A DNA stretch of 64,000 bases from Candidatus Scatosoma sp. (GCA_045636845.1 JAZTYG010000011.1:1345-65344), one strand, 5' to 3'. Positions 1,702-48,709 are shown, numbered from the stretch's first letter. Numbers and translations are program-made. Notes: generated from the sequence alone by a model not told the origin.

Positions 1702-1731
1702 TGTTCTATTATTCCTCCTGTCCATTTCGCC

Positions 1732-1752
1732 ACGGCGGCAAACCGCCGCCGT
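1732..1752 (-). promoter_or_regulatory. GC-rich intercistronic hairpin without U-tract
   Basis: ACGGCGGC (1732-1739), loop AAACC, GCCGCCGT (1745-1752). Lies between the 986-aa gene stop (1788) and the lipoprotein start. Confidence 0.5.
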
Positions 1753-1787
1753 AGCCATGGGTTGTTTACATCTTATCCGCCTGTAAG

Positions 1788-4748: not shown

Positions 4749-4763
4749 AGCTTTTCTACCTCC

Positions 4764-12636: not shown

Positions 12637-12658
12637 TGTAAAATATACTTAATTTTTG

Positions 12659-15600
12659 TTAAGCTTCAAGCGCTTCACATGCCGTTTTGTAGAATGTGAA
12701 AAGATCGCCGAAGTAGTTGGTGAAATCGTCCACCGCTTTTACAAGAAGCGCGTCGGGGCTATCCTTCGCCTTTTCCGCTTCTACACTTGCAACCAAGTCG
12801 TTGTATTGCGTCATCAATTCCGCAAACTTGTCTTCCAACATTTGCTTGTAGGTTCTTACACCTTCCACGCCGTCGGGATCGTTCGTGTAATATACATACA
12901 TCATTTGTACTTCCATCAACTTTTCAACAAGCGTACCGATATTCGTGTTGCGTTCCTTTGCGAAACGGATATACGAACTCATGTACATACGAAGGTGAGA
13001 GTCTAATACATAGATGAAGTATTTTTGATCGTTGCTCAATGCTTGGAAATCATCAAGCAATTGCATCATGGTTTCTTCGTCTGCGAAGTACTTGTAGTTA
13101 GGATCAGAGTCAGGACGAAGGTTCATATTGATATATGCGCCGTACAAGTACGAAGCATCCGCAAGGAAATCTCTAACGTCAAGCTCAAGATAGCTATCCC
13201 ATACAAGGTTGCCTGCCTTCAAATAGGAAGCACCCGTCAACGCATCTACATACGCGTCACGAATATACCATACAAGGAAGTCCATCGTGCCGCCCCAGGT
13301 CAAGGGTGCCCAGCCACCGCTGTAAGGATCGGGCAAATACACGTTTTCGATCGACATTTCATCGTAGTAGTACGCATTCAAAATGCGAGGATCTGCGCTA
13401 GACAAAATCTTGTTGGAGATACGTTCAACCTCTTCCATTGCCGCATAGAAAGCAACCGCAAGGTTTACCTTACCTGCCTGCATATTTGCTTGGTAAAGCA
13501 TCATCATCTTATACGCTTCGCTAGTTGCTACCAACAAGTCTTCGAAGTCCTGCTTTTCCGTCTTGGACAATTCTTCCGTCTTGTAGGTACCGTTCTGCTG
13601 TCTTAAACCTGCAAACTTCGTTTCCAAAGCTTGATATTTAAGAACAAGCCAGTCTGCAACATCGTTGAACGCTTCCCAGTCCTCTCTATCCACATTGTCA
13701 ATTGCTTCGTTTACAATGTCCATAGCCGCCAAGAAGCTACCGTAGGAGCTTGCAACTTGAACATTTGCAAGAGTTTCCGACGCCAACATCAATTGACTGA
13801 AGATTATGTGCGTGCTTTCGGGCAAGATTTCGTAGTAATATTCGTAAATCAATGCCGCGAATTGATTGTGATAGGTTTCACCATCCGTTTCCCAAGCGTA
13901 CAAGGGATAACGGCCATTTGCACTAGGTCTGTAATGAGGGTGCAACATTTCCATAAACGCGAATTGCTGTTTAGGGGACAATTCCAAATAATCTTTCAAA
14001 AGACCTTCCACATCCGCATCATAATCTGCGCTGTTACGATATTCTTCGTCTGCGTAGTTGATCAAAACGGACATGTAATCATTCCAAAGCTCTTCAAATT
14101 CCGCAATACCCAGGTACGCGTTGAAGTGATGGAGATAACCCATAGGCGCCGTACGGAAGTTGGTAAACAACTGATCAAAGGTGCTCAATTTGTAACCGCC
14201 CTGTCCATCGCCGATCAAGTAGTCAAATTCTAAGGTGTTGTAGAGGTCAATCCACATTTCGTTGCCAGAGGCCAAGATTTCTGCTCTCTTTTCCAACGCC
14301 TTATCGTAGGAATACATAAATTGCGAAGATTCAAACAACTGGTAGTTTTGCATATAAACAATGCAGTTTTTTGCTTCCAACATATAGTTGTACAAAACTT
14401 CCAACTCGCCAGGCAAACGCAAATCCTTGAAATCGTTTACCTTCTTCGCTTCGTATGGATCTTCGTGGTTGTAGTAATATTCGTAGAGAATTTCGAAGTA
14501 GTCATTCTTCGCTCTCCAGTTGCTTACAAGGAGATAAAGCGATCTGTGCTGCGTTGCGGTGTAACCCGTTTCATAGAGAATTACCCACGCGCTTTGAAGC
14601 TCATCTGCATATTCCGATCTCAAAAGATCCAAGGTCCAATCGTCAGGGATATCCTTCAACGCATTGTGCAAGCCGATCATCAAACCGAGCTGTTCTGCAA
14701 ATTCGTCCATAACTTCGGGCGAATATACAGGCGCGAGCGTGTCCGAAATGGTAATGTCTTCATCTTCGAAAATAACAACATCAGCGAATTTTTCCTTGAT
14801 TTGAAGAAGGAGCTGTGCATCCTCATACAAGATGGGATCTTTATTCAAAAGATTTTGATATGCTGCTTCCGTCAAGGCAACATCGCGGCAATCCCAACGA
14901 AGGGTACCCTCTTCACTCAAATAGAAAGCATCTTTATATGCCGCAAAAGCATCTTTCCACTTGTTCAACCCGTACATGGTAGCCACCTTTGCGATTGCCT
15001 GTACATTTTCTTCATCAATCTTGGTGGTTTCCGAATCGGGCATTTCAAAATATACCTGCATCGCTTCAATGGCGTTTTCACCCATCGTATCGGTAACCGC
15101 ATCGGGCAATGTATTACCCGTCCAGTTCAACGATTTCATTTCGCCTGCGCGCAAGTTAATCAAGGATAAGTCGCTAAACTTAATCTGTACGGTATAGGTT
15201 TTCGTATAACCCATATAGGTTACGGTAAGCGTTTGTTCCAACGGGGTTTCACGGTGTGCAACCGTAGCCAAACCAGGGTTGAAGCCACTAACCATATCCT
15301 CAGTCAATTCTTGATATCTCGTCAATTTTTCCGACTTCAACGAAATATAACCGCCCGATACATCCAAGTCGGTGTCGTGGTTGTTATAGAATTTCTTATT
15401 CGGCGCGTTAAAGTCAACCGTTTCAACGGCATATACCGCAACCTTGAAGCTTACCGAATAGGAAACGCCGTCCTTTGCATAGGTTGCCGTAAGGGACAAC
15501 GCGTCGTTTGCTTCCGTCGAGTCATAGCCCGTAATGGTGATGGTTTCGTCTTCCATCGGAACAACAAACGAAGTACCATCGTCGTTGGTGATGGTGAAAT

Positions 15601-16084
15601 CACCCTTTTCCATATTGATAGGCTCGCCTACAAAGTAAGCGCTTTCGTATTGTGCAGCAACCATACGAGGAACAACCGTAACCTTCAAAAGGGTCGTTTG
15701 TTCTTCGTATTCTACCGTCAATACCTGTTCGCCTAATTTATTTTTATCATAACCAGTGATGGTGATGTCAGGGTCGTCCAAATCAATTTCCTGTTTTTCA
15801 CCTTTGATTACTACGGTAAGCTTAGCACCCGTGAGGTTCAAATCGCTGCCTAATACATAAGTGGTTTGAGGCATATTTTTCTTGGCGATATCAATGTTTT
15901 CAACCTTTTTTCCGCCGCCTACAAGACAGATCACGCCAACAATTACAGCAACCAAAACCGCTGCAATCGAGGAAAAGATAATCGCTTTTTTCTTAACGCT
16001 CCAATCCTTGAACGATTGACCGCTGGATTTCGGCGTTTTGCCTTGCTCCATTACATCAAACTTTTCATCATAGTTGTTAGCCAT
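12659..16084 (-). CDS. signal-anchored 1141-aa protein: 3x Big_3-type Ig repeats + ~800-aa helical region of unknown family
   Basis: Signal-anchor AIIFSSIAAVLVAVIVGVICLV. Ig repeats: YVLGSDLNLTGAKLTVVIKGE...VLTVEYEEQTTLLKVTV, YFVGEPINMEKGDFTITNDDG..., ...TLTVTYMGYTKTYTVQIKF. The rest is Y/E/L/A-rich and apparently all-helical, and I recognise no family in it. Confidence 0.75.
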   Translation of the reverse strand: MANNYDEKFDVMEQGKTPKSSGQSFKDWSVKKKAIIFSSIAAVLVAVIVGVICLVGGGKKVENIDIAKKNMPQTTYVLGSDLNLTGAKLTVVIKGEKQEIDLDDPDITITGYDKNKLGEQVLTVEYEEQTTLLKVTVVPRMVAAQYESAYFVGEPINMEKGDFTITNDDGTSFVVPMEDETITITGYDSTEANDALSLTATYAKDGVSYSVSFKVAVYAVETVDFNAPNKKFYNNHDTDLDVSGGYISLKSEKLTRYQELTEDMVSGFNPGLATVAHRETPLEQTLTVTYMGYTKTYTVQIKFSDLSLINLRAGEMKSLNWTGNTLPDAVTDTMGENAIEAMQVYFEMPDSETTKIDEENVQAIAKVATMYGLNKWKDAFAAYKDAFYLSEEGTLRWDCRDVALTEAAYQNLLNKDPILYEDAQLLLQIKEKFADVVIFEDEDITISDTLAPVYSPEVMDEFAEQLGLMIGLHNALKDIPDDWTLDLLRSEYADELQSAWVILYETGYTATQHRSLYLLVSNWRAKNDYFEILYEYYYNHEDPYEAKKVNDFKDLRLPGELEVLYNYMLEAKNCIVYMQNYQLFESSQFMYSYDKALEKRAEILASGNEMWIDLYNTLEFDYLIGDGQGGYKLSTFDQLFTNFRTAPMGYLHHFNAYLGIAEFEELWNDYMSVLINYADEEYRNSADYDADVEGLLKDYLELSPKQQFAFMEMLHPHYRPSANGRYPLYAWETDGETYHNQFAALIYEYYYEILPESTHIIFSQLMLASETLANVQVASSYGSFLAAMDIVNEAIDNVDREDWEAFNDVADWLVLKYQALETKFAGLRQQNGTYKTEELSKTEKQDFEDLLVATSEAYKMMMLYQANMQAGKVNLAVAFYAAMEEVERISNKILSSADPRILNAYYYDEMSIENVYLPDPYSGGWAPLTWGGTMDFLVWYIRDAYVDALTGASYLKAGNLVWDSYLELDVRDFLADASYLYGAYINMNLRPDSDPNYKYFADEETMMQLLDDFQALSNDQKYFIYVLDSHLRMYMSSYIRFAKERNTNIGTLVEKLMEVQMMYVYYTNDPDGVEGVRTYKQMLEDKFAELMTQYNDLVASVEAEKAKDSPDALLVKAVDDFTNYFGDLFTFYKTACEALEA

Positions 16085-16131: not shown

Positions 16132-18927
16132 TTATTCCGCAGCTTTCGTCCAAATTGCGTATAATGTGGTATTGTTTTCTGCAGTTGCAACGGTTTCCAT
16201 CGTGTAATCCACAGTCTTGCTGCCCTGCGTCTTCGTCCAACCGCCGAAAGTGTAACCTTCGCGCGTAGGAGCAGCCATACCGTTGGTTGCAACGCTGTTG
16301 GTGAGCGAGGTTGCCGTCTTTACGAAGGATACAACGTAGCTGTTGTCTTCGGACAAGGTGCAGCCCCATACAACAGGTCTGTACGAAGTGTTCCATTGAC
16401 CAAGCCAGTTCATAGGTCTGCTTGCGTATTCGGTGTAGAAGGTTGCATTGTTGCAGCCGTTGAATACGTGCTTGCCAATCGTGGTAATGTGGTCTGCCAA
16501 GATTACGCTCTTCAAACCGTTACAGTTTCTAAACGCGTAATCGGAGATGGTCGTCAAGCTTTCGGGAAGCATTATGCTTTCCAAACCAGCGCAACCGTAG
16601 AAAGAATATCTGCCGATTTCTTTCAAACCGTTGTTAAATTCAATCTTCGTCAACGCTGCACAATCTCTAAACGCATAATTGCCGATCTTTTCCAAGGATG
16701 CCGACAACTTCACATTCGTAAGCGCCGTACAACCGTAGAAGGTATAATTGCTAAGCTCCGTCAAACCGTCGCCAAGCTCTACGCTGGTCAATCCAATGCA
16801 CTTGTAGAAGACATGCGTACCAAGCGTGGTCAAGCTGTCGGGAAGTACAAGTTCCGTCAATGCCGTACATTGATAGAATGCACGGTTACCGATCGACTGC
16901 AACGCACTGTCCCCTTCCTCCGTCGTTTCGAAGGTCAAGCTAGCAAGCGCGTTACACTTGTAGAATGCGAACTCGTCAATCATTTCAACCGATGCTGGAA
17001 TCGTTACCTGCGTCAAGGCATAGCACTTGTTGAATGCGGAGTAGCCGATTTTCTTTACCGATTTAGGAATGTAGATTTCGGGCAAGGCGGAGCATTGATA
17101 GAAGGTGAATTCTTCAATGATTTCCAAATCCAAGGGCAACATGATTTGCGTCAAGCTCATACAGTTGTAGAACGCGCAACGGCCGATGAATTTAACCGAT
17201 TCGGGCATCGTTACGGTATTCAATGCCACCGCGCCGTAGAAAGCGTAGTCCGCAATACCGCGCGTACCTTCTTCGATGTGTACAAATTCCATCGCGTCGT
17301 TTACACAGCCAACCAACCAGTTACCGATATATACCCAAGAAATAGAGTTGTTCCACGCTTTCGTTGCTTCGAAGGCATAGGTACCGATACGCTTCAAGGA
17401 GTCGGGGAATTTTTCCACCGCTTTCCCGTTGATAAAGGTCGTTACACCGCTCTTATCTAAACGTTCACAAGCCTGGAATGCGTAGTTGTCGATAAGTTCC
17501 AACCCTTCTTTTGCCGTTACATAGGCAAGGTTTTTACATTTTGCAAACGCATACTTGCCGATTACCTTCAAGTTTGCGCTCATTTCCACAGCGGAAATAT
17601 ATTGACAATCGTAGAATGCGTAGTCACCAACATAACGAATGGTGTCGGGTAATTTAACCGCCCAACCGCTCGTCGTCCATTCCTTATCGCATTGATAGAA
17701 TGCACGGTCTGCGATACCTACTGCGTTATCGGGGATTGCAAAGCTCGCATCCCCTTCAATGGGTACATTGGGACCAAGCACCCAACCGTCAATGGTGATG
17801 ATGCCAGGAGCAAAGAGCCAAACAAACGTGTTTTGGAATGCACCTGCGCCGAGGGAGGTCAAATTGTCGCTCAAATCAATCGACGCCAACATTACGCAGT
17901 TGATAAATGCGCCTTTACCGATGGTTTCTACCGAATTCGGAATCGCAATTGCAGGAAGCGACGCGCAACCCGAGAAAGCATATTCATCAATCGTCTTGAT
18001 GTTATTACCGAACATTATGCTCGTCAAAGCGGAGCAGTTCAAGAACGCATATTGAGGAATGGTTTCCACACTGTTACCGATCGTCAATTTGGTCATCGCA
18101 ACATTTTCCGCAAATGCGTATTCCCCGATGGTTTTTACCGTGTCAGGAATTTCAACATTGTCCAACTTGTCGCAGTTCGAGAATGCGTAAGTGCCGATTT
18201 CGGTCAAACCGCTGGGCATTACAACTTTTTCCAAGCTACGGCAATATGCGAAGGTGTAGTTGCTAATCAATTTCAAATTTTTAGGTAACTTTACTTCCGT
18301 CAAGGTACGGCAGCCTTGGAATGCGTATGCGCCAATCTCCGTAACGGATTCTTTGATGTCAACGCTTTCCATCAACGCGCAGTTATAGAACGCGCGCATG
18401 CCGATCGAACGGATATTTTTACCAAGCGTAACCGACTTGATATCCTTACTCTTGTTAGCGAACGCCATATCACCGATTTTGGTAACGGGTTTTCCGCGGT
18501 AGGTATCGTCGATTACAACGTCGCCCGACGCCGAACCCAAACCTCTTACCTCGTATTCGGTGTTATTATTAATTAAAGAGTACGACAAGCCAGATTCTCT
18601 TACACGCTTATATTCATACGCTTTCGACCAGTCGGAATCTTCAAGCTCTTCGTTATCGCTAATCGCCTGTACCACAATGACATAATCGCCGGGCACCAAC
18701 GGATCCAAGGGATACGAAGGCTTTTTGCTCACGTATTCTTCATTATTTACCAAAATTTTATATCCTCTCGCTTCCTTAATAGGATCCCACGACAAGGACA
18801 GAGTTGCTTCGTCTACCTTAAAGGTCTTGATATCGGGCGTGGCAATTTTATCGGTGCCGCAGCAAGCCAATATCATCAAGCAACTTATGATAAAACTCAA
18901 AACAATGAGTATTCTAAATTTCTTCAT
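16132..18927 (-). CDS. surface lipoprotein: Fn3-like module + BspA-type LRRs + C-terminal InlB B-repeat
   Basis: The track ORF opens at 18978, but GGAG 7 nt before ATG 18927 gives MKKFRILIVLSFIISCLMILACCG (lipoprotein signal). Fn3-like KTFKVDEATLSLSWDPIKEARGYKILVNN. About 650 aa of IG..AF..C..L..V.LP repeats. C-terminal REGYTFGGWTKTQGS...TLYAIW. Confidence 0.85.
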   Translation of the reverse strand: MKKFRILIVLSFIISCLMILACCGTDKIATPDIKTFKVDEATLSLSWDPIKEARGYKILVNNEEYVSKKPSYPLDPLVPGDYVIVVQAISDNEELEDSDWSKAYEYKRVRESGLSYSLINNNTEYEVRGLGSASGDVVIDDTYRGKPVTKIGDMAFANKSKDIKSVTLGKNIRSIGMRAFYNCALMESVDIKESVTEIGAYAFQGCRTLTEVKLPKNLKLISNYTFAYCRSLEKVVMPSGLTEIGTYAFSNCDKLDNVEIPDTVKTIGEYAFAENVAMTKLTIGNSVETIPQYAFLNCSALTSIMFGNNIKTIDEYAFSGCASLPAIAIPNSVETIGKGAFINCVMLASIDLSDNLTSLGAGAFQNTFVWLFAPGIITIDGWVLGPNVPIEGDASFAIPDNAVGIADRAFYQCDKEWTTSGWAVKLPDTIRYVGDYAFYDCQYISAVEMSANLKVIGKYAFAKCKNLAYVTAKEGLELIDNYAFQACERLDKSGVTTFINGKAVEKFPDSLKRIGTYAFEATKAWNNSISWVYIGNWLVGCVNDAMEFVHIEEGTRGIADYAFYGAVALNTVTMPESVKFIGRCAFYNCMSLTQIMLPLDLEIIEEFTFYQCSALPEIYIPKSVKKIGYSAFNKCYALTQVTIPASVEMIDEFAFYKCNALASLTFETTEEGDSALQSIGNRAFYQCTALTELVLPDSLTTLGTHVFYKCIGLTSVELGDGLTELSNYTFYGCTALTNVKLSASLEKIGNYAFRDCAALTKIEFNNGLKEIGRYSFYGCAGLESIMLPESLTTISDYAFRNCNGLKSVILADHITTIGKHVFNGCNNATFYTEYASRPMNWLGQWNTSYRPVVWGCTLSEDNSYVVSFVKTATSLTNSVATNGMAAPTREGYTFGGWTKTQGSKTVDYTMETVATAENNTTLYAIWTKAAE

Positions 18928-18990
18928 TTTCTTCTCCATGAAAATTTTTAACAAATTTTCGACAGTAACGTTTTGCAACTTTTGCGCCTT

Positions 18991-19024
18991 GCGGGTTGAA
19001 GCGAAGCATCCCTCGCTTCAACCG
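18991..19024 (-). promoter_or_regulatory. strong 13-bp intercistronic hairpin without U-tract
   Basis: GCGG(G)TTGAAGCGA (18991-19004), loop AGCATCCC, TCGCTTCAACCGC (19012-19024). Lies between the VWA gene stop (19037) and the LRR lipoprotein start (18927). Confidence 0.5.
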
Positions 19025-19036
19025 CAAACGCCTTTC

Positions 19037-21796
19037 TTAAATATTTTTTTGGATTAACAGCTTCTTCGCCTTTCTATCTCGAATAATTTCATGGATCCAC
19101 TTGAACTTGAACTTTCTTACCGCAATATCCATTAAGAAGAGTACAAGCGCCGTAATCATGAACGGGATACGAGGGTCATAGCTACGATTGAGCGTCTTTG
19201 CGATTTCCTCGTAAATCTTGTGGGAATCTTGAATCACTTTACCTTGACCGCCTTCTGCAAGAGCAACCATCAAGTTTTTACCATCTTCTGCATCGTAGAA
19301 CATGTTGTATTCTTCCGAGTAAGCAAACGCCTTGTACATGCTGGCCTTTGCCAACACATTACCCTGCGCGTCTAACTTCTTCACCGTCAAACGATGTACG
19401 CCCGGCTGTGTAATCGAGAATGCGATACGGGAATATCCTTCCTCTGCGGTAGGTTTCACGGTACGCGTTTCCGTCAATGCGCCGCTTGCGTTCGGGCTGG
19501 TGATTTCCAACTCGATCGATTCACCATCTTGAACTTTGGTGTAAACACTCATGCTCAAGTCGTAGTTCCCTTCCTGCAAGACAATTTCAATGTCCTGCAC
19601 ACGAATATTCTTCGTCGGGAACAAGCCGTTGATGATGTTCATAATCAATCTTCGACCTGTTGCATTCGCCATAAACTCGGACGACCATACGTTGTTTAGG
19701 TCGCACATGAAGCTACCAACCATACCTTGGCCATATTTCCAGTGCGCGTAGATGGGAACGAATTCACCCTTCAAGGACATTTCCGCACCCGATTTCAACT
19801 TCGTACCGTAGAAGCCGTGCAATTCGGGGATATCTACCTGTTCAATGCCGCTTACTACGCTCGTATGTGCGTCAATCTTGGGTTGGAAAGGTTCGTAGTT
19901 GATTGCCTTGATTTCCTTCATGTTCAATTCTTCACGCATGATACGAGGCAAGGAAGCAACGTCCCAAACATCGTAGAAACGACCTTTACCAAGTTCCGCT
20001 GCGCGGCGAATATCGTTTTTATCGGAGTTAGAAAGATCTTCACCGATGATAACAAACGAGAATGTTACAGGCGCGTTTACGTCGTTAACGTACTGTTCGA
20101 TGGGGATACTATATTGATCAAAACCATCGGCAGGGATACCGTCGGTTACCAAGATAATGTGACGTCTTTCTACATTCTTAATCGACTGCAACGAACGACC
20201 TGCACCAGCAAGAGCGTCTTGGAATACCGTACCGCCACCCGTTTCGATGCTGTCGATTGCCGCCAAGAGCTTCGCCTTTTGCGTCATAGGCTGGATACGC
20301 ATTTCTTCGGTGTACTTTTCTTCCAAAGTCATGATACCGCAGTAGTCGCGTTCGGTCAAAGCATTCAAACACGCTTTCGCACCTTCTTTTGCAAGCTCCA
20401 ACTTCGTTTGAGCACTTGCACCAGCAGGCATATCCATGGAACCCGAACGGTCGATTACGAGCATTACTGCTACGGGAGGCGTATAGTCAATTGCCTGTAC
20501 GGGCAACATTTCTTGATACAACGTGCCGTACATATCCTCACGGTTGTACGCATTTGCTACCACTTCGCCTTTGTCCATAACTTGGTTGCCGTTTTCGTCC
20601 ACTTGGTTACCACCAACCGTCAACAAGCCGCCGCCGATATCGTTTACGTAGGTGTAAAGTTCATCGATAAACCCTTCGGGCATATCCGCGTTTGCAATGT
20701 TTACCAAGATAACTTGGTCGTACTTACGCAATTCGTTTACCGTCTTGGGCATCGTATCAACATCCGTCAAAATGTTTACCGTTTGAATTTCGAATTGTTC
20801 ATTTTCTTCCAACAACAAGGTCTTTAAGCTGTCCGATTCCCCTGCGTTTCTTTCCACCATCAAGATTTTCGTGAAGGTTTCAATATACATGTAGGAACGA
20901 TAGGTGTTATTTTCTTCACAGCCATCGCCGCCGCCCGAAACTTTAAGTTCCAAGGAGTGCAAACCAGGAACGGAGAATTCGTGTTCGATTTCCAAATCCT
21001 GTACGCCGTTGTTGTTCAAGACGGTTGCTTCGATTTCATTGCTGAAAATACCGTTGTCGTACAATTCTAACTTAATCATCCCTTCATACGAGCTTCTTAC
21101 ATTTGCAACAAGGGTAAACGTATCACCGATGTTCACATTGTAATCAGGGGTCGTAACGCCTACAATCTGTACTTCCTGTGCAGGCTTTTCCGAAGGGAAA
21201 TATACCGAGTTTACCTCGATACCTTCCGCTGCGAGTTCTTTTACAACCGACGCAGCCTTACCGTCCGTTTCCAAACCATCGGAAACCACGACGATCTTTG
21301 CTACTTCCTTATTTTTAAATAAATCGCGCGTGTACACGAGGGCATCCGCGATATCTGTCGCCGTACCGTCGGGCTTTTCCGACATAATGTACTGCGAATA
21401 AGCGGACGAGGTGTTCGTCGTAAGGGGTACTGCATAAACAGGTTCGCCGTAACCAAAGGTTACAACACCGATTTGACAAACGTCCTTGCTGTCCTTAATC
21501 GCATCCATGATGAATTCATTTTTCTGCGTTTCTACATCCTTACCGCTGTAAGATGCGTCTACCAACAAGATAACCTCCGTTTCCAAGTTAGGAATTTCGT
21601 AGGTGAAGTTGATACCTGCCAACGTCAAGATGCTCAAGGTCGCAACAATGAAATAACATACCATCGACACGATACGGTTTCTCGTACGTCTATATCTCTT
21701 AGAAATACGGAAGTACAGGTAGAAACCCAACGCGAATGCGGGGATAAGGATTAAAAGAAGCCAGGGATACAAAAAGTTAATTCTAAAATTACTCAT
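19037..21796 (-). CDS. BatA-N-terminal / double-VWA membrane protein (919 aa)
   Basis: AAGGAGG RBS. BatA-type N-terminus FLYPWLLLILIPAFALGFYLYF plus a second TM. VWA 1: VILLVDASYSGKD. Central GATase1-like block: KILMVERNAGESDSL...YDQVILVNIAN. VWA 2 with canonical MIDAS: VMLVIDRSGSMD ... ILVTDG. C-terminal TM: IPFMITALVLFLMDIAV. Confidence 0.8.
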   Translation of the reverse strand: MSNFRINFLYPWLLLILIPAFALGFYLYFRISKRYRRTRNRIVSMVCYFIVATLSILTLAGINFTYEIPNLETEVILLVDASYSGKDVETQKNEFIMDAIKDSKDVCQIGVVTFGYGEPVYAVPLTTNTSSAYSQYIMSEKPDGTATDIADALVYTRDLFKNKEVAKIVVVSDGLETDGKAASVVKELAAEGIEVNSVYFPSEKPAQEVQIVGVTTPDYNVNIGDTFTLVANVRSSYEGMIKLELYDNGIFSNEIEATVLNNNGVQDLEIEHEFSVPGLHSLELKVSGGGDGCEENNTYRSYMYIETFTKILMVERNAGESDSLKTLLLEENEQFEIQTVNILTDVDTMPKTVNELRKYDQVILVNIANADMPEGFIDELYTYVNDIGGGLLTVGGNQVDENGNQVMDKGEVVANAYNREDMYGTLYQEMLPVQAIDYTPPVAVMLVIDRSGSMDMPAGASAQTKLELAKEGAKACLNALTERDYCGIMTLEEKYTEEMRIQPMTQKAKLLAAIDSIETGGGTVFQDALAGAGRSLQSIKNVERRHIILVTDGIPADGFDQYSIPIEQYVNDVNAPVTFSFVIIGEDLSNSDKNDIRRAAELGKGRFYDVWDVASLPRIMREELNMKEIKAINYEPFQPKIDAHTSVVSGIEQVDIPELHGFYGTKLKSGAEMSLKGEFVPIYAHWKYGQGMVGSFMCDLNNVWSSEFMANATGRRLIMNIINGLFPTKNIRVQDIEIVLQEGNYDLSMSVYTKVQDGESIELEITSPNASGALTETRTVKPTAEEGYSRIAFSITQPGVHRLTVKKLDAQGNVLAKASMYKAFAYSEEYNMFYDAEDGKNLMVALAEGGQGKVIQDSHKIYEEIAKTLNRSYDPRIPFMITALVLFLMDIAVRKFKFKWIHEIIRDRKAKKLLIQKNI

Positions 21797-21810
21797 TTCC
21801 TTGTCCTCCT

Positions 21811-23694
21811 TTAACTATCCTGCGCCTGTAACCAGCGTTCAAAGATTACCAACGCTACCAACGCCGCTGCAAGATACAACAACAAATCCAAGTTGTCCAA
21901 ATCCTTCTTCTTGGGAACGATCAATTCGTCTAATTCATCCACCACTTTGCTAATGTTGCTTTCGGAAGCAGGGATTTTTACAAAGAATTGTTCGGTTACA
22001 AGCTCACCGGACAACGGGGTTTGCGTTACCGTATAAGAACCGGGCTGTGTCAAGACAATCGTTTGAGGGAATTCTTCAATCTTATTCTTGTATTTGCCGT
22101 TGGTCGATTGAATCGACAATTCTTCCGATCTTGCATTCAACGTAATTTCTTCGTTGATGTCAAACGAGTAACCTTCCAACGTCGAGGGCATAAAGTAATC
22201 AAAAATGTTATATATCAACATAGGGAACTCAACGTACATAGATACCATCGAGAAGTTTACGCTGAAGTTCATAACCAAAATCTTCTGCCCTTCGCTTTCC
22301 TTTACAAGCAATACAGGGTCGCCTGCACAGAACAACAAAGGCTGGAAGCCGTCATAGGTCAAAATTCTGGTGTACTGCGACACCTCTACCTTTTCCGCAT
22401 TGAAGCGGTTGGTGATGGGATGGCCTTCGCCAGCCGCAAGAGTAAAATCACCATTGATAAGCTGCCCAGGTACCATCGTCAAGCCTTCGGGCGCTTTGTC
22501 CATGTTAATCAACATTACTACGCCGTCGGTAGGCATTACGTCGGGCATCGTATGTTCGAATACATAGAAGTCGTAACCGCTCGTGGGAACTTCTTCCTTA
22601 CCTGCGGGCTTGTTCATTTCCTTCAATTCGATATTCCAGCTGGTCAACGTATCACGAGCCGTCAATAACGTACCGCCGATAAAGCTGTTCGCCCTCGGGC
22701 TGCAATAAAGCACATTCAACGTGGGCTTTTTACCGCCGTAGATGTGGAAGTCGTTATCCTGAGGGAAGGAGTCGTCTTCGGAGATATACACATGGACGGA
22801 TTCAAATTCAAATACAGGCGTCGTCGTGTTTTGCGTAACGAAGGTCGCGGTTTTTACTTGGTCCGCGTCACAACGTACAGGCAAATCCATCTTCACAGTA
22901 CCAGCACCGTTTGCGCCTTGCACGTCACAATGTACAATCAAATCCGTATCGCGGTTATACGCCGCAACGCTCACCTTGAAGGTGTAGTAGTTTTCTTCGA
23001 ATAAAGCTTCACAATCCAAGATTGCTGCATTCCATTCGCCATTTTGCGACACATCCACCACCGTTACCTCACCTGCATCCAAATATTCGGTTGCGGTATA
23101 GAGGTAAACTTCGGTGTCGAGGTTTTGGTCAACGATTTTCTGCGCCAACTCAATCGCGCCAGCAATATCTGCCATACCATAGGTACAAAGGTCGCTGCTT
23201 ACCAACTCATCCAAATCGGTGAACAATTCCAACGAATTTTCGGAGGTGTAACGCTGCGCCAAATAGGACGCTTCCGTACCTGCTACGATTACGGTTACAA
23301 AACCTTCTTGCTCAAATGTTTCCTTTGCAAGCGTTTCCGCTTCAAACACAGCACGTTCGAAACGGGTTTCATCTGCATAAGCAGCGCGCATGCTTGCCGA
23401 CGCATCAATGATTGCTACCTTTTCCACAATCATAGGAGCTTGCGCTTCTTCGATGATCGGTTGTGCAAGGATGAACGCGCACGCCGTAATAATCAAAATC
23501 TGGCAAATGAAGAGCAATATGTTCCTAAATTTGTTGATAGGAATTTTCTTTCTCTTGTATTTCAAGCTTAATTTCCAGATAAAAGTACTGGAAATAAACT
23601 TTTGTTGATAATTCGGCTTTAAGATGTAGATAAGGATAAGTACTGCAATCCCTATCAACCCTAAAAAGCCTAAAGGTGTAATCCAATTCATCAT
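21811..23694 (-). CDS. BatA-N-terminal / VWA membrane protein (627 aa)
   Basis: The ATG overlaps the DUF58 stop (ATGA). N-terminus WITPLGFLGLIGIAVLILIYILKP plus a second TM. VWA: VAIIDASASMRAAY. Long beta-rich ectodomain. C-terminal TM: LLLYLAAALVALVIFERW. Confidence 0.75.
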   Translation of the reverse strand: MMNWITPLGFLGLIGIAVLILIYILKPNYQQKFISSTFIWKLSLKYKRKKIPINKFRNILLFICQILIITACAFILAQPIIEEAQAPMIVEKVAIIDASASMRAAYADETRFERAVFEAETLAKETFEQEGFVTVIVAGTEASYLAQRYTSENSLELFTDLDELVSSDLCTYGMADIAGAIELAQKIVDQNLDTEVYLYTATEYLDAGEVTVVDVSQNGEWNAAILDCEALFEENYYTFKVSVAAYNRDTDLIVHCDVQGANGAGTVKMDLPVRCDADQVKTATFVTQNTTTPVFEFESVHVYISEDDSFPQDNDFHIYGGKKPTLNVLYCSPRANSFIGGTLLTARDTLTSWNIELKEMNKPAGKEEVPTSGYDFYVFEHTMPDVMPTDGVVMLINMDKAPEGLTMVPGQLINGDFTLAAGEGHPITNRFNAEKVEVSQYTRILTYDGFQPLLFCAGDPVLLVKESEGQKILVMNFSVNFSMVSMYVEFPMLIYNIFDYFMPSTLEGYSFDINEEITLNARSEELSIQSTNGKYKNKIEEFPQTIVLTQPGSYTVTQTPLSGELVTEQFFVKIPASESNISKVVDELDELIVPKKKDLDNLDLLLYLAAALVALVIFERWLQAQDS

Positions 23695-24590
23695 GCCATG
23701 ATACCTACCTTCAACAACTCACTAAACAACACTCTTTCAAGAGGTTGATCCGTACTCAACGATACGAATTCTGCGTCGCGGGACACACAGAAGGATCTTA
23801 AATCTTCCTTGAAGTCTGCCAACGCTTCTTGATAAGCCAATTGTAAGCTGCGGGTTATTCTTAATTTCATATTCTTGGGGTCTTCGAGGGCTTCCGCTTC
23901 CACGTCGATCAAGTTCAATCTACCGTCGTAAACCGGTTCAAGTTCATCTGGCGTAAGAATTTGAACAAGTAAAACCTGTCTTTTCTTATATGTCAAATAA
24001 TCTACCGCTTTCTTCCAGTTGCTGTCCGTCAAAAAGTCGGAAATGATCACGGTAAGGCCGTCGTTCGAGCCGGTTTTAGGATAGCTCGTAATCGCTTTAC
24101 CAAGATCGGAATCCCCTGTAAACTCAAGATTTTCAAGCTCACTAATAGCTCTGAAAAACGAGGTTTTACCAACGATTGTTCCAAATGGGTTCTCGGCTCT
24201 GTCGCCCTTAATCAAATTGAAGGACAATTTATCCATATTATGCACGGAGAGGAAACCAAGCGCAGCGGCAATCGCAACGGCGTAGTTCGATTTCACAGGG
24301 TCGTCTTTACCCATGGAAGCCGAACAATCCAAGAAGATTTGCACGTGCATCTGTCTTTCGTCCGTAAATAATTTTAAGAAGAATTTTTCAAAACGGCTGT
24401 ACAAGTTCCAGTCGATACGTCTGATGTCGTCACCGAGCATATATTCGCGATAATCGGCAAATTCTACCGTTTGACCGTAGGTACGGACAAGGTGCTTACC
24501 GCCGAAGAAACCGCGAAGGTCTGCCTTCATGTTCAACGCCAACGTTTCTAACCGTCCGAAAAACCCATCATTTAAGTACGAGTTCTTCAT
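23691..24590 (-). CDS. DUF58 domain protein (MoxR partner)
   Basis: FADYREYMLGDDIRRIDWNLYSRFEKFFLKLFTDE is the DUF58 signature. It is followed by a VWA-like VQIFLDCSASMG. The gene starts 3 nt after the moxR stop. Confidence 0.85.
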   Translation of the reverse strand: MKNSYLNDGFFGRLETLALNMKADLRGFFGGKHLVRTYGQTVEFADYREYMLGDDIRRIDWNLYSRFEKFFLKLFTDERQMHVQIFLDCSASMGKDDPVKSNYAVAIAAALGFLSVHNMDKLSFNLIKGDRAENPFGTIVGKTSFFRAISELENLEFTGDSDLGKAITSYPKTGSNDGLTVIISDFLTDSNWKKAVDYLTYKKRQVLLVQILTPDELEPVYDGRLNLIDVEAEALEDPKNMKLRITRSLQLAYQEALADFKEDLRSFCVSRDAEFVSLSTDQPLERVLFSELLKVGIMA

Positions 24591-24593
24591 TCC

Positions 24594-25715
24594 TTACTCC
24601 CTATTTGCTTTGTTTGCTTTCTTTGCTGCCTTCATTTCCTTTTTGGACATTACTTTTTCTTCATTGTTTTCCGTAGCCGCTACTTCGCCTTCAGCAGTAG
24701 AAATTTCTACTTCTTCAACGGGCGTCAATTTGTAACGCTTACCAACCTCACCGATGATCATCTTAATGATTTCGTCTGCGGATACGCGTTCTGCAACTGC
24801 TTCAAACGTCAACTTCATACGGTGACGAAGTACGGGGTAAGCAAGTTCGTTGATATCGTTGTAGGATACGTTGTAACGACCGTTAAGCAAAGCCTTAACC
24901 TTCGCTGCGGAGATAAGAGCCTGACCTGCACGAGGGCTGGCACCGAGACGAACATATTTCTTTGCAGCTGCGGTAGCACATTCGCTATCGGGATGCGTAG
25001 CGGAGCAAAGGGTCATTGCATATTTCATAACTTCTTCCGCAACAGGGATTTGGTTAGCGGTCTTTCTCATTTCAAGCAATTCGTCGCCGTTACATGCAAC
25101 GTCTGCAACTTCCGCCATCGTCTTCTGCGTCAAGTTTACGATGTCCATCAATTCGTCAAGGCTAGGATTCTTAACGATAAGCTTGAACATGAAACGGTCC
25201 ATCTGCGCTTCGGGAAGAGGATACGTACCATCTTGTTCGATAGGGTTCTGCGTAGCAAGTACGAAGAAGGGTTCGTTCATCTTTCTAGATACACCCATAA
25301 CGGTTACGGTGTGTTCCTGCATGGCTTCGAGCAATGCGGACTGCGTTTTAGGGGTAGCACGGTTGATTTCGTCGGCAAGGATAATGTTGCTGAAGATGGG
25401 ACCGGGCTGGAATTGGAAGGACGAGTTGCCCTGTTCGTCTTTAACGATGATGTTCGTACCGGTAACGTCCGCAGGCATCAAGTCAGGCGTGAACTGAATA
25501 CGGGAGAAGGGAAGGTTGAATACGCGGCCAAGCGTACGAACCAAACGGGTCTTACCTACGCCAGGTACACCTTCAAGCAATACGTTACCACCAGCGATCA
25601 TTGCGATGATCGTACCTTCAACGATATCTTTTTGACCGATAACGTCGCGTTGAATTTGGGTGAAGATATTTTTGCACTGTTCGCTGAATTTTTCAATGTT
25701 TTGTTCCGTAATCAT
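24594..25715 (-). CDS. MoxR-family AAA+ ATPase
   Basis: Walker A LEGVPGVGKT. Walker B IILADEINRATPKTQSALLEAMQE. VLATQNPIEQDGTYPLPEAQMDRF. Unusual ~55-aa acidic-then-Lys-rich C-terminal tail (EEVEISTAEGEVAATENNEEKVMSKKEMKAAKKANKANRE). Confidence 0.9.
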   Translation of the reverse strand: MITEQNIEKFSEQCKNIFTQIQRDVIGQKDIVEGTIIAMIAGGNVLLEGVPGVGKTRLVRTLGRVFNLPFSRIQFTPDLMPADVTGTNIIVKDEQGNSSFQFQPGPIFSNIILADEINRATPKTQSALLEAMQEHTVTVMGVSRKMNEPFFVLATQNPIEQDGTYPLPEAQMDRFMFKLIVKNPSLDELMDIVNLTQKTMAEVADVACNGDELLEMRKTANQIPVAEEVMKYAMTLCSATHPDSECATAAAKKYVRLGASPRAGQALISAAKVKALLNGRYNVSYNDINELAYPVLRHRMKLTFEAVAERVSADEIIKMIIGEVGKRYKLTPVEEVEISTAEGEVAATENNEEKVMSKKEMKAAKKANKANRE

Positions 25716-25769
25716 AATATTTTTTCCTCTCTTAAATTTTTTTCTTTTTTGTTTTTTGTGGGGTGTGAA

Positions 25770-26786
25770 TTACACGATAACCTCGAAATAGGTTTGAATG
25801 AATTCGCGCAATTCATCGGGGATGTTTTCGGCGGATTCGAGCCACTTCATAGCTTCTTCGTAGTACCCGCCCGATTCTAACAAGTCACGGTAGTAGGTGT
25901 TACCATCCTTGATCATGTTGTTTTCTTCGTACGCGCCGTTTGCACCGTTGTTCGGTTCGCCTTCTTCTTCGGTAGGCTTGTCGGATTTACCAGGCTCGTC
26001 GCCTTGGCCCGCTTCACCTTCGCCTTCGCCTTCACCTTCACCGATGGGTGCGAATGTTGCTTCAAGGATGAGGTCTTCTTCAACGCCAAACTCGCTACGG
26101 TTCGGATCCTTGATACCATCCGACCATTCTACGAAAGCAAAACCGTCGTCCGCTACCGCGATGATTTCCACCGTCGAGCCGCCCTTTTCAATGATTTGGA
26201 TATCATCACCTTCGATGAGGCCCTCGCCTTCGGCAACCACGTAGGTAATCGTTACATAATCAACATCGGGTTCAGGGAGGATTTCCTCGAAGACTTCTTT
26301 ACCCGGTTTAACGATACCGCCTTCCACCAAGCCGCTAACCGTTGTCATACCGCTGCCCAACACAAAAGCCACAGCGAGCACGATGATGATTGCTTTCGGG
26401 AACTTGAAGCGAATACGCTTGGGTTCGATCTTCTTCATCGTCACCTGCGCGTCCTCACGCTGCTTCTGCATGATGTACGATTCTTCACCGATGAATTCGG
26501 TCATCGTAATCATACGTTCTTCCAAGCCGAGCCTATCCAAGCGCTCTGCTACCTCTTTCGCGGAAGGCTTGAACTTCTTGGTGTAGAAGATCGGGGTCGC
26601 AGCCGCCGTTACAACTACCCAAGCGCCAAGTGCCCACCACAAACCGTTCCAACCGTAATACCACGCAGTAAACGCTACTGCAAAGTTTACAGCAAACCCG
26701 ACGATAAGGCCGCAGAATAACGCTTTGAGCATACCTTCCCGAGCAAGTCGGGAATAATATTTGTCAAATAATTCCTTTACGTCCAT
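25770..26786 (-). CDS. 3-TM membrane protein with a divergent InlB B-repeat (Flg_new_2-like) ectodomain; first gene of the MoxR operon
   Basis: AAGGAG 6 nt before the ATG. TM helices: ALFCGLIVGFAVNFAVAFTAWYY, LWWALGAWVVVTAAATPIFY, AIIIVLAVAFVLGSGMTTV. Ectodomain: YVTITYVVAEGEGLIEG...IAVADDGFAFVEWSDGIKDPNRSEFGVEEDLILEATF. Then an (EG)n acidic linker and a C-terminal helical segment ending IPDELREFIQTYFEVIV. Confidence 0.7.
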   Translation of the reverse strand: MDVKELFDKYYSRLAREGMLKALFCGLIVGFAVNFAVAFTAWYYGWNGLWWALGAWVVVTAAATPIFYTKKFKPSAKEVAERLDRLGLEERMITMTEFIGEESYIMQKQREDAQVTMKKIEPKRIRFKFPKAIIIVLAVAFVLGSGMTTVSGLVEGGIVKPGKEVFEEILPEPDVDYVTITYVVAEGEGLIEGDDIQIIEKGGSTVEIIAVADDGFAFVEWSDGIKDPNRSEFGVEEDLILEATFAPIGEGEGEGEGEAGQGDEPGKSDKPTEEEGEPNNGANGAYEENNMIKDGNTYYRDLLESGGYYEEAMKWLESAENIPDELREFIQTYFEVIV

Positions 26787-26935
26787 ATTTTCTCCTTTCG
26801 CGTTTATTTTTTCCTGTTAAAAACTCCCACTTTTTGTTTCGCATACACATGTACACTATATATAGGGGTGCTTTTTTAGGTGTAAAAAACGCCTTTTTTG
26901 TGTTTTAACGCATAATATCACATTATACGGTGACT

Positions 26936-26964
26936 ATTGTACCATTTTCAAGGGGATATGTCAA
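26936..26964 (-). promoter_or_regulatory. sigma-A-type promoter of the MoxR/VWA (and possibly whole surface) operon
   Basis: Minus strand TTGACA (26964-26959), 17 nt, TACAAT (26941-26936). About 140-nt leader to ATG 26786. Confidence 0.6.
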
Positions 26965-27223
26965 GCAAAAAGGCTTATTTTTGAATGTAATTTTTGATTA
27001 TTTACCCATTATCGATAGAAAAAACGAATTGCTATAATCTATTTTTTTGCAACAAAAAAGATGAGGCGAAGGAATGGAAAATTTACCCTAAAAATGCCCC
27101 TATTTTTCGCGTTTTGAGGGAAATAAGCTCTATATCCATCCCCCTAAAACGGGTGAAATTTGCCCGTTTTTACATTCGATTGTATAATTTATCAACTGGC
27201 TACAATAAGCGAAAAAAAGGCGT

Positions 27224-27256
27224 AAAAAAAGCGCCAGGCATATTTCAGCCCAGCGC
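27224..27256 (-). terminator. intrinsic terminator of the giant gene
   Basis: Minus-strand RNA GCGCUGGGC-UGAAAUAU-GCCUGGCGC (9 bp including two G-U pairs), then U7. 55 nt after stop 27312. Confidence 0.65.
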
Positions 27257-27311
27257 CCTTTTTAGTTATGCAATTGTGGAAGGTTTTACAACCCCACTGC
27301 CCTATCGAGAA

Positions 27312-30300
27312 TTACAATACGAAATAGCTATCGTCTTGGTTCGTCGAGCAGTACATAAATTGACCACGATCTTCCGTGAAGTCACAATACTTCGCAGTTG
27401 CAACGCCCTTAGGCATTTCAAATCTCGTATTCGCAAACGCGTTTTCTGCAAAGGTGATACCATCCTTGAAGGTACCGTTCATCACGATGTCTTCCAAAGC
27501 GGTACAGCCGTCAAATGCACGTACTTGAATACCGATAATACCAACAGGCGTATCCAAGCCCTTTTCATTCAAGAAACTGCTTCTATAATCGCCCAAAGCA
27601 GAGCTAAATACAACCTTCTTCAACGAAGTACATTTGGTAAATGCACCGATCTGAATCATTACGGGAGCATTGAACGTACCTACACCCTTTTCTTCGAATA
27701 CAACATTCGTCAAAGAGGTACAATTTGCAAACGCAAATACACCGATACTTTGTTCAAACTTATCCGTGGATTGATATTTATTAACTGAACCAGGCTGATT
27801 AGGATCCCATTCGTAAGCATATTCACTAAGCGCAATCGCAGCCGCTCTTACACGATAAGGAATGGTGAATACATATTCGCCAGTAGCTTCGTCGTATGCA
27901 CCCTTAAGGTTTCTACAGTTAAGGAATGCATAGTCACCGATACTCAAGCGTTGCGTACCGCCTGCTTCGAAGATAACGTTTTCAAGTTTCGTACAGTTTG
28001 CAAATGCATACGCGCCGATACCGTCAACATCTTCAAGTACAGGACGCCCCATGTAGCCCATACCTCTACCAGGTTCAAGAATCCAGTCACCCACTACAAA
28101 GTCCGAATAAACCGTCTTAGGAATGGTAATGCTAGTCAAGGATACACAACCGTCAAATGCGTGTGCGCCAATCTTTTCAAGCGAGATAGGCAAGGTTACG
28201 GAAACAAGGTATCTACAATCCTTAAATGCATTTGCAGGGATAGCGGTAATCGTATCGGGCAATACAATGCCTTCAATGTCCGTACCCTGGAATGCGCCTT
28301 CTGCAAGCGAAAGTACCGAATTAGGAATGGTAAGTACGCCAGAAGCGCTAGGAAGTACATAGATGATTTCCGTCTTCATCGTATTGTAGAGGATACCGCT
28401 ATCATACGAGAAGTTCATGTTACCACCTTCAACAGCGATGTCGCTCAAATCAGTACAGCCAGCAAATGCGCCGATACCAAGCGTTTCCAAAGAAACAGGG
28501 ATCGAGAACGATGTCAAAGCAGTACAGTTCGTAAACGCCATCGAAGCGATGGAGATGATGCCATCCTGCAAAGCAACACTTGCAAGAGACCTACAGTTTG
28601 CAAACGCATATTCATCAATCGAAATTACACTAGAAGGCAAGCTAATCGCCGTAAGTGCAGTACCGTCAAATGCGTGAGTACCGATGGTTTCAACGCCATC
28701 ATTCCAAGCTACATTCGCAAGTTTTCCACAACCCTTGAACGCGTTGCTGCCGATCGTCGTTACGCCAGCACCGAACTTAATGTCGGTAAGGTTGGTACAA
28801 CCTTCAAATGCGCTGGTGCCGATTGTCGATACGAAATCGGGAAGCACCATGCTCTTCAAAGCAGTACAGCCTGCAAATGCCGAATCAGGAATTGCTTCGA
28901 TACCGCCAGAGAAGGTTACATTCGTCAAAGATGTACAGCCATTGAATGCCACCGCACCGATTGCGCTAACACTTGAAGGCATCGTGATCGAGGTCAACTT
29001 CGTACAACCCTTGAACGCAGATGCGCCAATCGTCGTACAATCGCCCAAGAAGGTAACTTCTTCAAGAGCCGTACAACCTTCAAACGTACCACCGCTTGTG
29101 GTCAATCTAGGCAACAAGCCGCCAACATTAGGAATCGCAATCTTCTTCAAAGAGGTACAACCTTGGAAGGTACCCTGCATCATGGTGATCATTGCATACT
29201 TATCTTCCATAAATGTAACGCTCGTCAAGGACTTACAACCCTGGAAAGTGCTATCCATCGAATCGATAGTCGCAGGAATATTGGATACAGTTTTCAACAG
29301 CGTACAGTTGTAGAATGTATACTTCAAGCTCGTGGACTGGTTACCATTTTCGAATACGATATTCTCGAATGCACAACCAGCAAAGACATGAGAACCAGAG
29401 AATACCACATCGGAAGGAACGGTGAATACATTCTTCGCGTCGGCACCTTCACCGATGGTTTTACCCCTCAAATTTGTACAGCTACTGAATGCTTGGTCGC
29501 CCAAGTTAAGAGGCGCCATTCTGCCTTCCTCGAAGGTGATTTGCGTCAAGTACTTACAAGATGCAAACGCCTTGTAAGCAATCGTCACTACATCCTTGGA
29601 AATAACAAGGTTCGTCAACTGGTTGTGACCAGAAACATTACCGCTAAACGCGTACGCGCCAATCGATTGAATGCCAGCAGGTACAACATACTTGCCTGCA
29701 ACATTAATCGTTTCGGGATTGCCTTCTTTGTCAAGCACAACTTCGCCGTTTTCATCCAGCTTGTTTTCCACCGTGCCAATGGCTTTTCCTACGGGGTAAT
29801 ATACGATTTCGGTGAAGTCCTTATTGTAAAGAACGCCATCCTTAGACGAATAGTAATCGCCTTCATATACGCCGTTGTCATTTGCTTTTTCACCAACCTG
29901 TACGGTTGCCAACTTCGACAAGCCTTTGAAGAGGAAGCGGTCTTGACCGCCTTCTACCGTCGAAATACTGCTAAGCGATTTAGGAAGCTGCAAGAACGTC
30001 AAGTTCGAAAGCGAACCAAATGCGCTTTGATTCAAAGTCGTAATACTGTCGGGCAATGCCAACGAGGTAATCTTTACATTATTGAATGCGCTAAAACCGA
30101 TCGATGTACACTTGCTACCAGGAGCAAAGCTAACACTCGTAAGTTGGCTACATCCGCTAAATGCAGAACTACCGATGCTTTCTACCGATGCAGGGATGGT
30201 AATGCTCGTCAATTTATAGCTAGTATTCGTACCGCAGCTTGCAAATGCGTTGGTAGGAATATTCTTAAGTTTGCTATTCGTTGCAAACATAATCGTCTTC

Positions 30301-36014: not shown

Positions 36015-36114
36015 AATCTTTTCCTCCATTTTTCCCTCATCCACAGCGTTGGTCAGGCGCCGTTAGATTTATTTTGTGCATCAAAACATATCAAAAAATG
36101 TAATGATACAATAA

Positions 36115-48699: not shown

Positions 48700-48709
48700 A
48701 AGAATCCTC

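Follow-up and report, generated by a model that had tools for sequence, protein, structure and literature searches.

What can a MoxR ATPase with von Willebrand factor A (VWA) partners be doing in the midst of genes for giant surface proteins? Bat-like operons occur in many phyla, and the phenotypes reported for them concern stress, the envelope or virulence, with no molecular client named (PMC5700661, PMC11834572). Here we analysed a stretch of 64,000 nt from Candidatus Scatosoma sp. (GCA_045636845.1 JAZTYG010000011.1:1345-65344; hereafter the window), in which a module of five genes (19,037-26,786) lies among genes for proteins with leucine-rich repeats (LRR) and B-repeats. Within the widespread Bat/Cmd type of MoxR-DUF58-VWA envelope modules, it represents a lineage-specific form. 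The locus as a whole reads as a six-gene operon with its own predicted promoter (gene 1, then the moxR, duf58, batA-like, double-VWA and LRR-lipoprotein genes), set amid giants with LRR and B-repeats that are predicted to be tethered to the membrane. Based on gene linkage and topology, we consider the chances evenly balanced that this module is specialised for such surface proteins as its clients. Joined at the operon level to an LRR lipoprotein, and with the giants alongside, it offers concrete candidate partners for a widespread system.

The minus strand carries every gene of the region. The five open reading frames (ORFs) of the module, of 338, 373, 299, 627 and 919 amino acids (aa), are separated by gaps of 54, 3, -4 and 14 nt, in agreement with the tight packing described in an earlier sequence-only reading of this DNA, and each of the motifs singled out there (GVPGVGKT, ILADEINR, DDIRRIDWNLYSR, DASAS, DASYS and DRSGS) is found in the module proteins. 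Domains were assigned by scanning the proteins of the window against the Pfam and NCBIfam profiles. The families that had been named, AAA_3, DUF58, VWA and Flg_new_2, were all matched by Pfam, as was BatA for the 627-aa protein. Furthermore, the three transmembrane (TM) helices attributed to gene 1, and the N-terminal TM hairpin and final TM helix of both VWA proteins, are backed by hydropathy, charge distribution and AlphaFold models. The features of the locus are collected in Table 1.

The same arrangement is found well beyond this genome. A scan of one genome per species returned 255 stretches encoding a gene 1 relative, all from metagenome-assembled genomes (MAGs) of uncultured gut Clostridia of ruminant, rabbit, chicken and human (the NCBI labels of the carriers include CAG:314, Ca. 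Gallimonas, Ca. Scatosoma and 'Christensenellaceae'). We fetched 80 of these loci which, with six more from three contigs, gave 86 loci for a tblastn synteny analysis; the counts that follow are over loci with sufficient flank. Downstream of gene 1, MoxR was found in 62/63 loci, DUF58 in 61/62, the BatA-like protein in 57/57, the double-VWA protein in 55/55, and an LRR lipoprotein of ~930 aa in 53/54, the sole miss being a locus (L046) that does have an LRR gene. Upstream, an LRR giant on the same strand is present in 65 of the 72 loci, its counterparts in relatives being 2500-3300 aa long. The counterparts of the LRR lipoprotein all have lipoprotein signal peptides, mostly with short gaps before them, and the order giant - gene 1 - MoxR - DUF58 - BatA-like - double VWA - LRR lipoprotein is kept down to ~35% gene 1 identity. 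In five annotated contexts, the window included, one order is found with five different outer flanks (AddAB, which is the flank of the island in the window, fumarase, glutamate dehydrogenase, pyruvate:ferredoxin oxidoreductase and an ABC ATPase), which indicates that the block has survived rearrangement around it. The sequence-only reading had staked its proposal on the persistence of this neighbourhood in relatives, and in the loci examined the order is strongly conserved.

Two peculiarities of the related loci can be recorded separately. In 23/86 of them the contig breaks off 0-1050 nt past gene 1, at, or within, the beginning of MoxR. Two gene 1 loci are present in each of six MAGs (e.g., L017/L018, L027/L032, L009/L025 and L020/L037); the paired gene 1 proteins are merely 40-54% identical, and in three pairs the adjacent downstream DNA is 91-100% identical. 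These pairs could be paralogous clusters, mixed bins, or alternative cassettes of giant plus gene 1 that share one MoxR operon.

Where does the transcript that carries the module begin and end? A terminator followed by two promoter-like sites ahead of gene 1 (the promoter calls being consensus matches only) suggests that the module begins its own transcript. The statement that no terminator lies between the module and the giants thus had to be given up, since a strong terminator and the two promoter-like sites separate it from the upstream 2910-aa giant. In relatives, the gap between the giant and gene 1 has a median of 210 nt between ORFs, and a crude scan found a terminator there in 28/54. 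At the other end, the gap between the double-VWA and LRR lipoprotein genes has a median of 52 nt and often holds merely an AAGGAGG ribosome-binding site; the crude scan found terminators, mostly weak, in 10/51 relatives. This short and mostly terminator-free junction supports read-through into the downstream LRR lipoprotein gene. In the window, the junction bears a GC-rich hairpin which may be an RNA-stability, processing or attenuation element, and not a canonical terminator. The hairpin is variable or absent in relatives, which have the same junction without a spacer or with different strong hairpins, and a search of the whole window with Rfam, hairpin included, found no known RNA element. 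Together, the synteny and the short LRR junction point to a conserved unit of six genes, with the LRR lipoprotein gene last and separately transcribed giants flanking it.

The two soluble components are well conserved. MoxR matches AAA_3 (6e-62) and AAA_lid_2 (9e-19) in Pfam, carries the Walker A (GxxGxGKT) and Walker B (hhhhDE) patterns, has PDB 2R44 as its closest solved structure (7.7e-74), and is at least 95% conserved at 197 of its 373 positions over 43 homologues. The DUF58 protein matches PF01882 (7e-34, 117.4 bits against a cut-off of 23.4), and D88, S90 and S92 of its metal-ion-dependent adhesion site (MIDAS) are at least 95% conserved over 55 homologues. TM segments are absent from both proteins, and the DUF58 protein is therefore probably cytoplasmic, like MoxR. 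The median identity of the best high-scoring segment pair across loci is 82% for MoxR and 71% for DUF58, against 41-43% for the BatA-like and double-VWA proteins, and the identity of gene 1 ranges over 34-60% across loci; faster evolution of the proteins with large ectodomains, compared with the cytoplasmic ones, is the pattern expected for surface-exposed parts.

The two VWA proteins had both been described as opening with a BatA-type double TM. For both, the topology with a basic loop agrees with this. The Pfam BatA profile (PF07584) recognises only the 627-aa protein (1e-8, 35.7 bits against 25.9, together with VWA_2), which falls below the cut-off for TIGR02226 (18.0 against 23.05), and neither BatA profile matched the 919-aa protein at E<=0.01. 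In the latter, Pfam identified a pair of VWA domains and, weakly, GATase1_like (27.8 bits). Its VWA-1 is nearest to the BatB structure 3IBS, and its VWA-2 has a complete MIDAS (D449, S451, S453, T523 and D552, each at least 95% conserved; here and below over ~50 homologues). In the other VWA motifs, D97 and S99 of the 627-aa protein and D80 alone of VWA-1 reach that level, the sequences in the window being DASAS and DASYS. High conservation is also seen in the basic, cytoplasmic tail (RKFKFKW.HE) with which the 919-aa protein ends. In the AlphaFold model of the 627-aa protein (predicted local distance difference test score, pLDDT, 83.7), a VWA domain, a beta-sandwich, a GATase1/ThuA-like domain and a second beta-sandwich lie between the membrane anchors; Foldseek related this model to STM3548, STM1381, ThuA-like proteins and the VWA domain of ANTXR2, the GATase1/ThuA-like fold being matched at 2e-6 (TMt 0.51). 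The basic loops within the N-terminal hairpins, the C-terminal TM helices and the basic tail of the 919-aa protein indicate that the large middle parts of both proteins are extracytoplasmic, an orientation that agrees with the periplasmic one determined experimentally for the VWFA domain of the BatA-like protein BB0173 (PMC5700661). From this topology, the VWA, GATase1-like and B-repeat domains would be outside the cell, and MoxR and DUF58 inside.

Such an arrangement raises the possibility that adhesion or receptor function lies with the VWA proteins themselves, which would resemble integrin I domains, Borrelia BB0172 or ANTXR2 and be switched between low and high affinity from inside by MoxR/DUF58, the LRR proteins being co-regulated, parallel adhesins. 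The complete and conserved extracellular MIDAS of VWA-2, the conserved cytoplasmic tail of the 919-aa protein, the resemblance of the 627-aa model to the VWA-plus-Ig arrangement of ANTXR2 and the binding of integrin alpha3beta1 by BB0172 (PMC5700661) would all fit this idea. However, no host ligand is indicated, anchors at both ends would hold the VWA proteins near the membrane beneath the giant LRR proteins, and the B-repeat on gene 1 is left unexplained. We thus consider it quite improbable.

Gene 1 heads the module. Its ectodomain had been described as a divergent InlB B-repeat, and this assignment stands: Flg_new_2 (PF18998) matches residues 183-248 with 25.2 bits against a gathering cut-off of 23.6, and 25/25 family members match it (best 9.6e-8) in a scan at the permissive threshold of E<=10. 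The AlphaFold model has a beta domain at 177-247 (pLDDT ~89); Foldseek with the full-length model gave no significant match, only weak resemblance to the InlB B-repeat, SHIRT and MucBP. The most conserved portion of the protein is a basic loop of ~60 residues after the TM hairpin, in which A80, R82, D84, L86-G87-L88, E90, R91, T94, Q109 and R110 are invariant across 25 sequences. By the positive-inside rule, this loop would be cytoplasmic and everything past TM3 outside. The disordered linker is acidic in all homologues (11-26 Asp/Glu within 43-92 residues), and the C-terminal three-helix domain bears a conserved DGxTYY motif. Gene 1 represents a full-length family of at least 455 clusters at 90% identity; a profile of its N-terminal module collects 1799 clusters at 50% identity, of which the best 150, those examined, share one architecture. 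When the B-repeat, the C-terminal domain or the loop was compared with the other island proteins using phmmer and hmmsearch, E exceeded 0.2 throughout, and the predicted link between the gene 1 B-repeat and the repeats of its neighbours is at the level of the fold family only.

The sequence-only reading had also taken gene 1 to be a new component. As a whole, the protein may not be new: DUF4175-type proteins of other Bat-like operons share its topology and possibly its cytoplasmic loop. Sub-threshold, collinear matches to DUF4175 (PF13779) were found in 7/25 gene 1 homologues (best 13.7 bits against a cut-off of 27.3), aligning gene 1 residues 6-97 to profile positions 5-98. The comparison of the gene 1 loop with an alignment of six DUF4175-like sequences in hhalign gave E 4.4e-4 with a probability of only 33%, and that with a single DUF4175-like sequence was negative; a search for further N-termini of this type yielded only 8 proteins. 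In Gemmatirosa, the last gene of the module encodes a DUF4175-like protein of 1268 aa laid out as gene 1 is (TM hairpin, cytoplasmic helical loop, TM3, extracellular part). Gene 1 and the DUF4175-type component of such operons may be related, with gene 1 as the remodelled form, but this is a weak lead. The Gemmatirosa module itself, which is unannotated, lies on plasmid 1 of G. kalamazoonensis (L090 9000-20103) in the order DUF4159 protein - MoxR - DUF58 - BatA/VWA/GATase1_like - DUF4175-like protein, and this gene order indicates that DUF4175-type proteins can belong to Bat-like modules.

How does the module compare with characterised systems? With the Bat operons and with bb0170-bb0176 of B. 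burgdorferi it shares MoxR, DUF58, membrane VWA proteins with the BatA hairpin and extracytoplasmic VWA domains. Unlike these clusters, it has no tetratricopeptide repeat (TPR) proteins (BatC/BatE) and no BatD: Pfam detected neither TPR nor BatD in the five proteins or any neighbour, whereas a Bacteroidota comparator has BatD. Its VWA proteins are also far larger (627 and 919 aa), with beta-sandwich and GATase1-like domains and a C-terminal TM, and it adds gene 1 and the LRR lipoprotein and sits among LRR/B-repeat giants. The alphaproteobacterial cmdA-D-type and Gemmatirosa clusters resemble the module in their order (MoxR - DUF58 - BatA_N protein - large membrane protein) and, judging by the 627-aa model and the weak Pfam match of the 919-aa protein, in GATase1-like folds of the ectodomains. 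They differ in carrying DUF4159, for which Pfam gave no match in the module proteins, in having no LRR lipoprotein or giants, and in their DUF4175-like protein of 800-1300 aa that stands last in the cluster, compared with the 338 aa of gene 1, which stands first and has a B-repeat ectodomain.

The nearest parallel for a conserved MoxR-DUF58 pair beside a surface adhesin gene is the PFNA cluster of Bifidobacterium (pkb2-fn3-aaa-atp-duf58-tgm), in which the pair accompanies the gene of a large surface adhesion protein with FN3 domains and MoxR has been proposed to aid folding or assembly of the FN3 protein (PMC8430577). There, in another phylum, a Ser/Thr kinase and a transglutaminase-like membrane protein replace BatA/VWA and the adhesin is FN3 rather than LRR/B-repeat; Pfam found no kinase, FN3-only adhesin or transglutaminase in our cluster. 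In our full-text literature searches, no paper turned up that connects MoxR modules with LRR proteins of the BspA type or with Listeria-Bacteroides repeat proteins. The pairing of an AAA+ MoxR with a VWA/MIDAS adaptor is shared with NorQ-NorD, RavA-ViaA and CbbQ-CbbO. That MoxR/VWA pairs work as chaperones for remodelling or insertion is established (NorQD, PMC9976466, PMC13036017; RavA-ViaA, PMC9489729): a MoxR hexamer and its VWA/MIDAS adaptor engage an acidic element of the client and remodel it (PMC9976466, PMC13036017, PMC9489729). In these systems client and chaperone share a compartment, whereas here most VWA domains would be extracellular and the ATPase cytoplasmic, so any coupling must cross the membrane.

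The same pairing also recalls the ternary MoxR-vWA conflict or defence systems (Kaur et al. 2020), and a secondary Pfam match of our MoxR to bpMoxR (2.4e-10) goes in this direction. What defines those systems is variable effector domains together with a third component, which may be VMAP, iSTAND, FtsH or a beta-propeller (PMC7159879). In Pfam we found none of these third components or effector domains, and PADLOC returned only generic AAA matches; moreover, the AAA_3 match is far stronger (6e-62) and the locus has the character of a stable core block rather than of a mobile element. A conflict system is thus extremely improbable here.

A cytoplasmic AAA+ ATPase that acts on extracellular VWA domains is the mechanistic puzzle posed by this topology. 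Giants and LRR lipoprotein alike, both here and in relatives, have ordinary export signals (lipoprotein or signal-anchor) at their N-termini and no long cytoplasmic part. A direct hold by MoxR would thus be out of reach, and contact, if any, has to be made outside the cell. (We considered whether the giants share a cytoplasmic N-terminal motif for MoxR to grasp and rejected this, as the giants of relatives begin with ordinary lipoprotein or signal-anchor peptides.) Conserved cytoplasmic segments are present in all three membrane proteins. The most likely mechanism would be that MoxR and DUF58, the latter as a VWA-like adaptor, act in the cytoplasm on the gene 1 loop and on the tails of the membrane proteins, the conserved loop or tail of gene 1, the BatA-like and the double-VWA proteins serving as potential docks. 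ATP-driven remodelling would then be relayed across the membrane by these proteins to the VWA and B-repeat domains outside. There, the MIDAS sites, and the B-repeat together with its acidic linker, would act on the LRR lipoprotein, and probably on the giants too, by binding, loading or holding them. Such contacts would be metal-ion-dependent and involve acidic residues, and through them a surface adhesion layer could be assembled or maintained. In its boldest form, this would be an integrin-like "inside-out" display machine, in which MoxR-DUF58 drives an extracellular MIDAS/B-repeat dock to load, hold or release giant LRR adhesins, and the general job of Bat/Cmd modules would concern extracytoplasmic protein assemblies and not aerotolerance; we offer this version as a speculation that is unlikely. 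As for the MoxR/VWA machine for a B-repeat/LRR layer proposed from the sequence, its conserved association with such proteins is borne out, at the operon level for one LRR lipoprotein, whereas a role in assembly, anchoring or remodelling is only inferred. The locus also hints at how abundant uncultured gut Clostridia build or control very large surface proteins with lipoprotein or signal-anchor N-termini.

Are the LRR/B-repeat proteins then clients, or simply neighbours? Several results weigh against the first answer. The upstream LRR giant is missing in 7/72 loci and is itself predicted to be a separate transcription unit. In L046 ('Christensenellaceae' SUG99, 10001-15908), gene 1 leads straight into the BatA-like, double-VWA and LRR genes, with MoxR and DUF58 absent from between them. 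Full conservation of the MIDAS is limited to DUF58 and VWA-2 of the 919-aa protein, and the gene 1 B-repeat did not match those of the neighbours (all E>0.2, phmmer and hmmsearch). Furthermore, all loci come from one clade and all carriers are uncultured MAGs; with such sampling, part of the synteny could be inherited, not selected. The second answer would be a generic module for envelope homeostasis or stress, with the LRR/B-repeat genes kept beside it by envelope clustering and inherited synteny. It has in its favour the homologous modules of Rhizobiaceae, Bacteroidota and Gemmatimonadota, which are without LRR neighbours, the published phenotypes of stress tolerance, envelope integrity and virulence (PMC5700661, PMC11834572), which likewise count against clients, and the terminator that the upstream giant has of its own. 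No LRR neighbours were found either at the plasmid-borne MoxR loci used as comparators. This explanation accounts less well for a block that stays intact while its outer flanks change, for an LRR lipoprotein gene that often follows the double-VWA gene with only a ribosome-binding site between, and for a gene 1 that bears a domain of the fold family of its neighbours, and we regard it as rather unlikely, though the main rival.

Table 1. Features of the locus, with positions in the window; membrane topology, promoters and terminator are predicted.
Feature	Position	Strand	Description
Gene 1 (338 aa)	25770..26786	-	TM hairpin, conserved cytoplasmic helical loop, TM3, extracellular Flg_new_2 B-repeat (183-248), acidic disordered Gly/Glu linker (250-296), small 3-helix C-terminal domain
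MoxR AAA+ ATPase (373 aa)	24594..25715	-	AAA_3 + AAA_lid_2; cytoplasmic; Walker A GVPGVGKT, Walker B ILADE
DUF58 protein, VWA-like (299 aa)	23691..24590	-	No TM helix; DxSxS (D88, S90, S92)
BatA-like protein (627 aa)	21811..23694	-	BatA N-terminal TM hairpin, extracellular VWA, beta-sandwich, GATase1/ThuA-like domain, second beta-sandwich, C-terminal TM
Double-VWA protein (919 aa)	19037..21796	-	TM hairpin, VWA-1, VWA-2, GATase1_like region, C-terminal TM, basic cytoplasmic tail
Intrinsic terminator of upstream giant	27223..27264	-	17-bp stem with 7 GC pairs, then T-run; 48 nt past the stop of the giant
Two overlapping sigma-70-like promoters	26922..26964	-	TTGACA-17-TACAAT with extended TG; TTGAAA-18-TATAAT; 11/12 each; ~140-180 nt 5' of gene 1 ATG
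GC-rich hairpin, junction of 919-aa and LRR lipoprotein genes	18984..19031	-	Perfect, ~21 bp, -39.7 kcal/mol, z = -4, no T-run
LRR lipoprotein (931 aa)	16132..18927	-	Sixth gene; ATG at 18927; lipobox LACC, six LRR_5 stretches, C-terminal Flg_new
Upstream giant surface protein (2910-aa ORF)	27312..36044	-	3 Flg_new B-repeats near membrane, 16 LRR_5 units
Big_3 surface protein (1141 aa)	12659..16084	-	Frequent seventh gene; N-terminal signal anchor
Remaining island	322..12503	-	Context only: 2579-aa S8 subtilase/PA/Fn3_5/LRR_5, 986-aa Flg_new/LRR_5 and 478-aa proteins

Around the module, the island proteins all begin with signal, lipoprotein or signal-anchor sequences, and Pfam detected no wall-anchoring domain in the surface proteins of the island. 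The true start of the 2910-aa giant is probably an internal Met shortly before its signal-anchor TM at residues 60-78. The B-repeat fold had been attributed to four neighbours; Flg_new is indeed present in the 2910-aa giant, the ~931-aa LRR lipoprotein and the 986-aa protein, and the 478-aa protein reaches sub-threshold scores only. As a seventh gene, Big_3 was seen in 22/53 relatives within the stretch of flank that had been fetched. Past 36 kb, LRR genes are absent from the window, and the genes there are for housekeeping and glycan degradation, which indicates that the LRR genes are clustered about the module, not evenly spread.

Finally, some features of the window stand apart from the module. 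The 2579-aa protein (4764-12503, minus strand) combines a head resembling cell-envelope proteases (S8 subtilase, PA and Fn3_5) with eight LRR_5 stretches. Between AddA and the upstream giant lies a gene for a 209-aa protein (36653-37282, minus strand) with three TM helices and no Pfam match. Very long plus-strand ORFs (688-1103 aa) run antisense to the giants (32502-35813, 5001-7403, 8289-10715 and 30390-32456) and are most likely shadow ORFs of repetitive, compositionally skewed coding sequence; the GC skew is negative over the entire window. A run of minus-strand genes at 47062-63910 encodes rhamnosidase-like, GH38 alpha-mannosidase, GHL6/fucosidase-like and DUF4886 proteins and two large metallophosphoesterases, a glycan-degrading repertoire that suggests a lifestyle of foraging on host or plant glycans.

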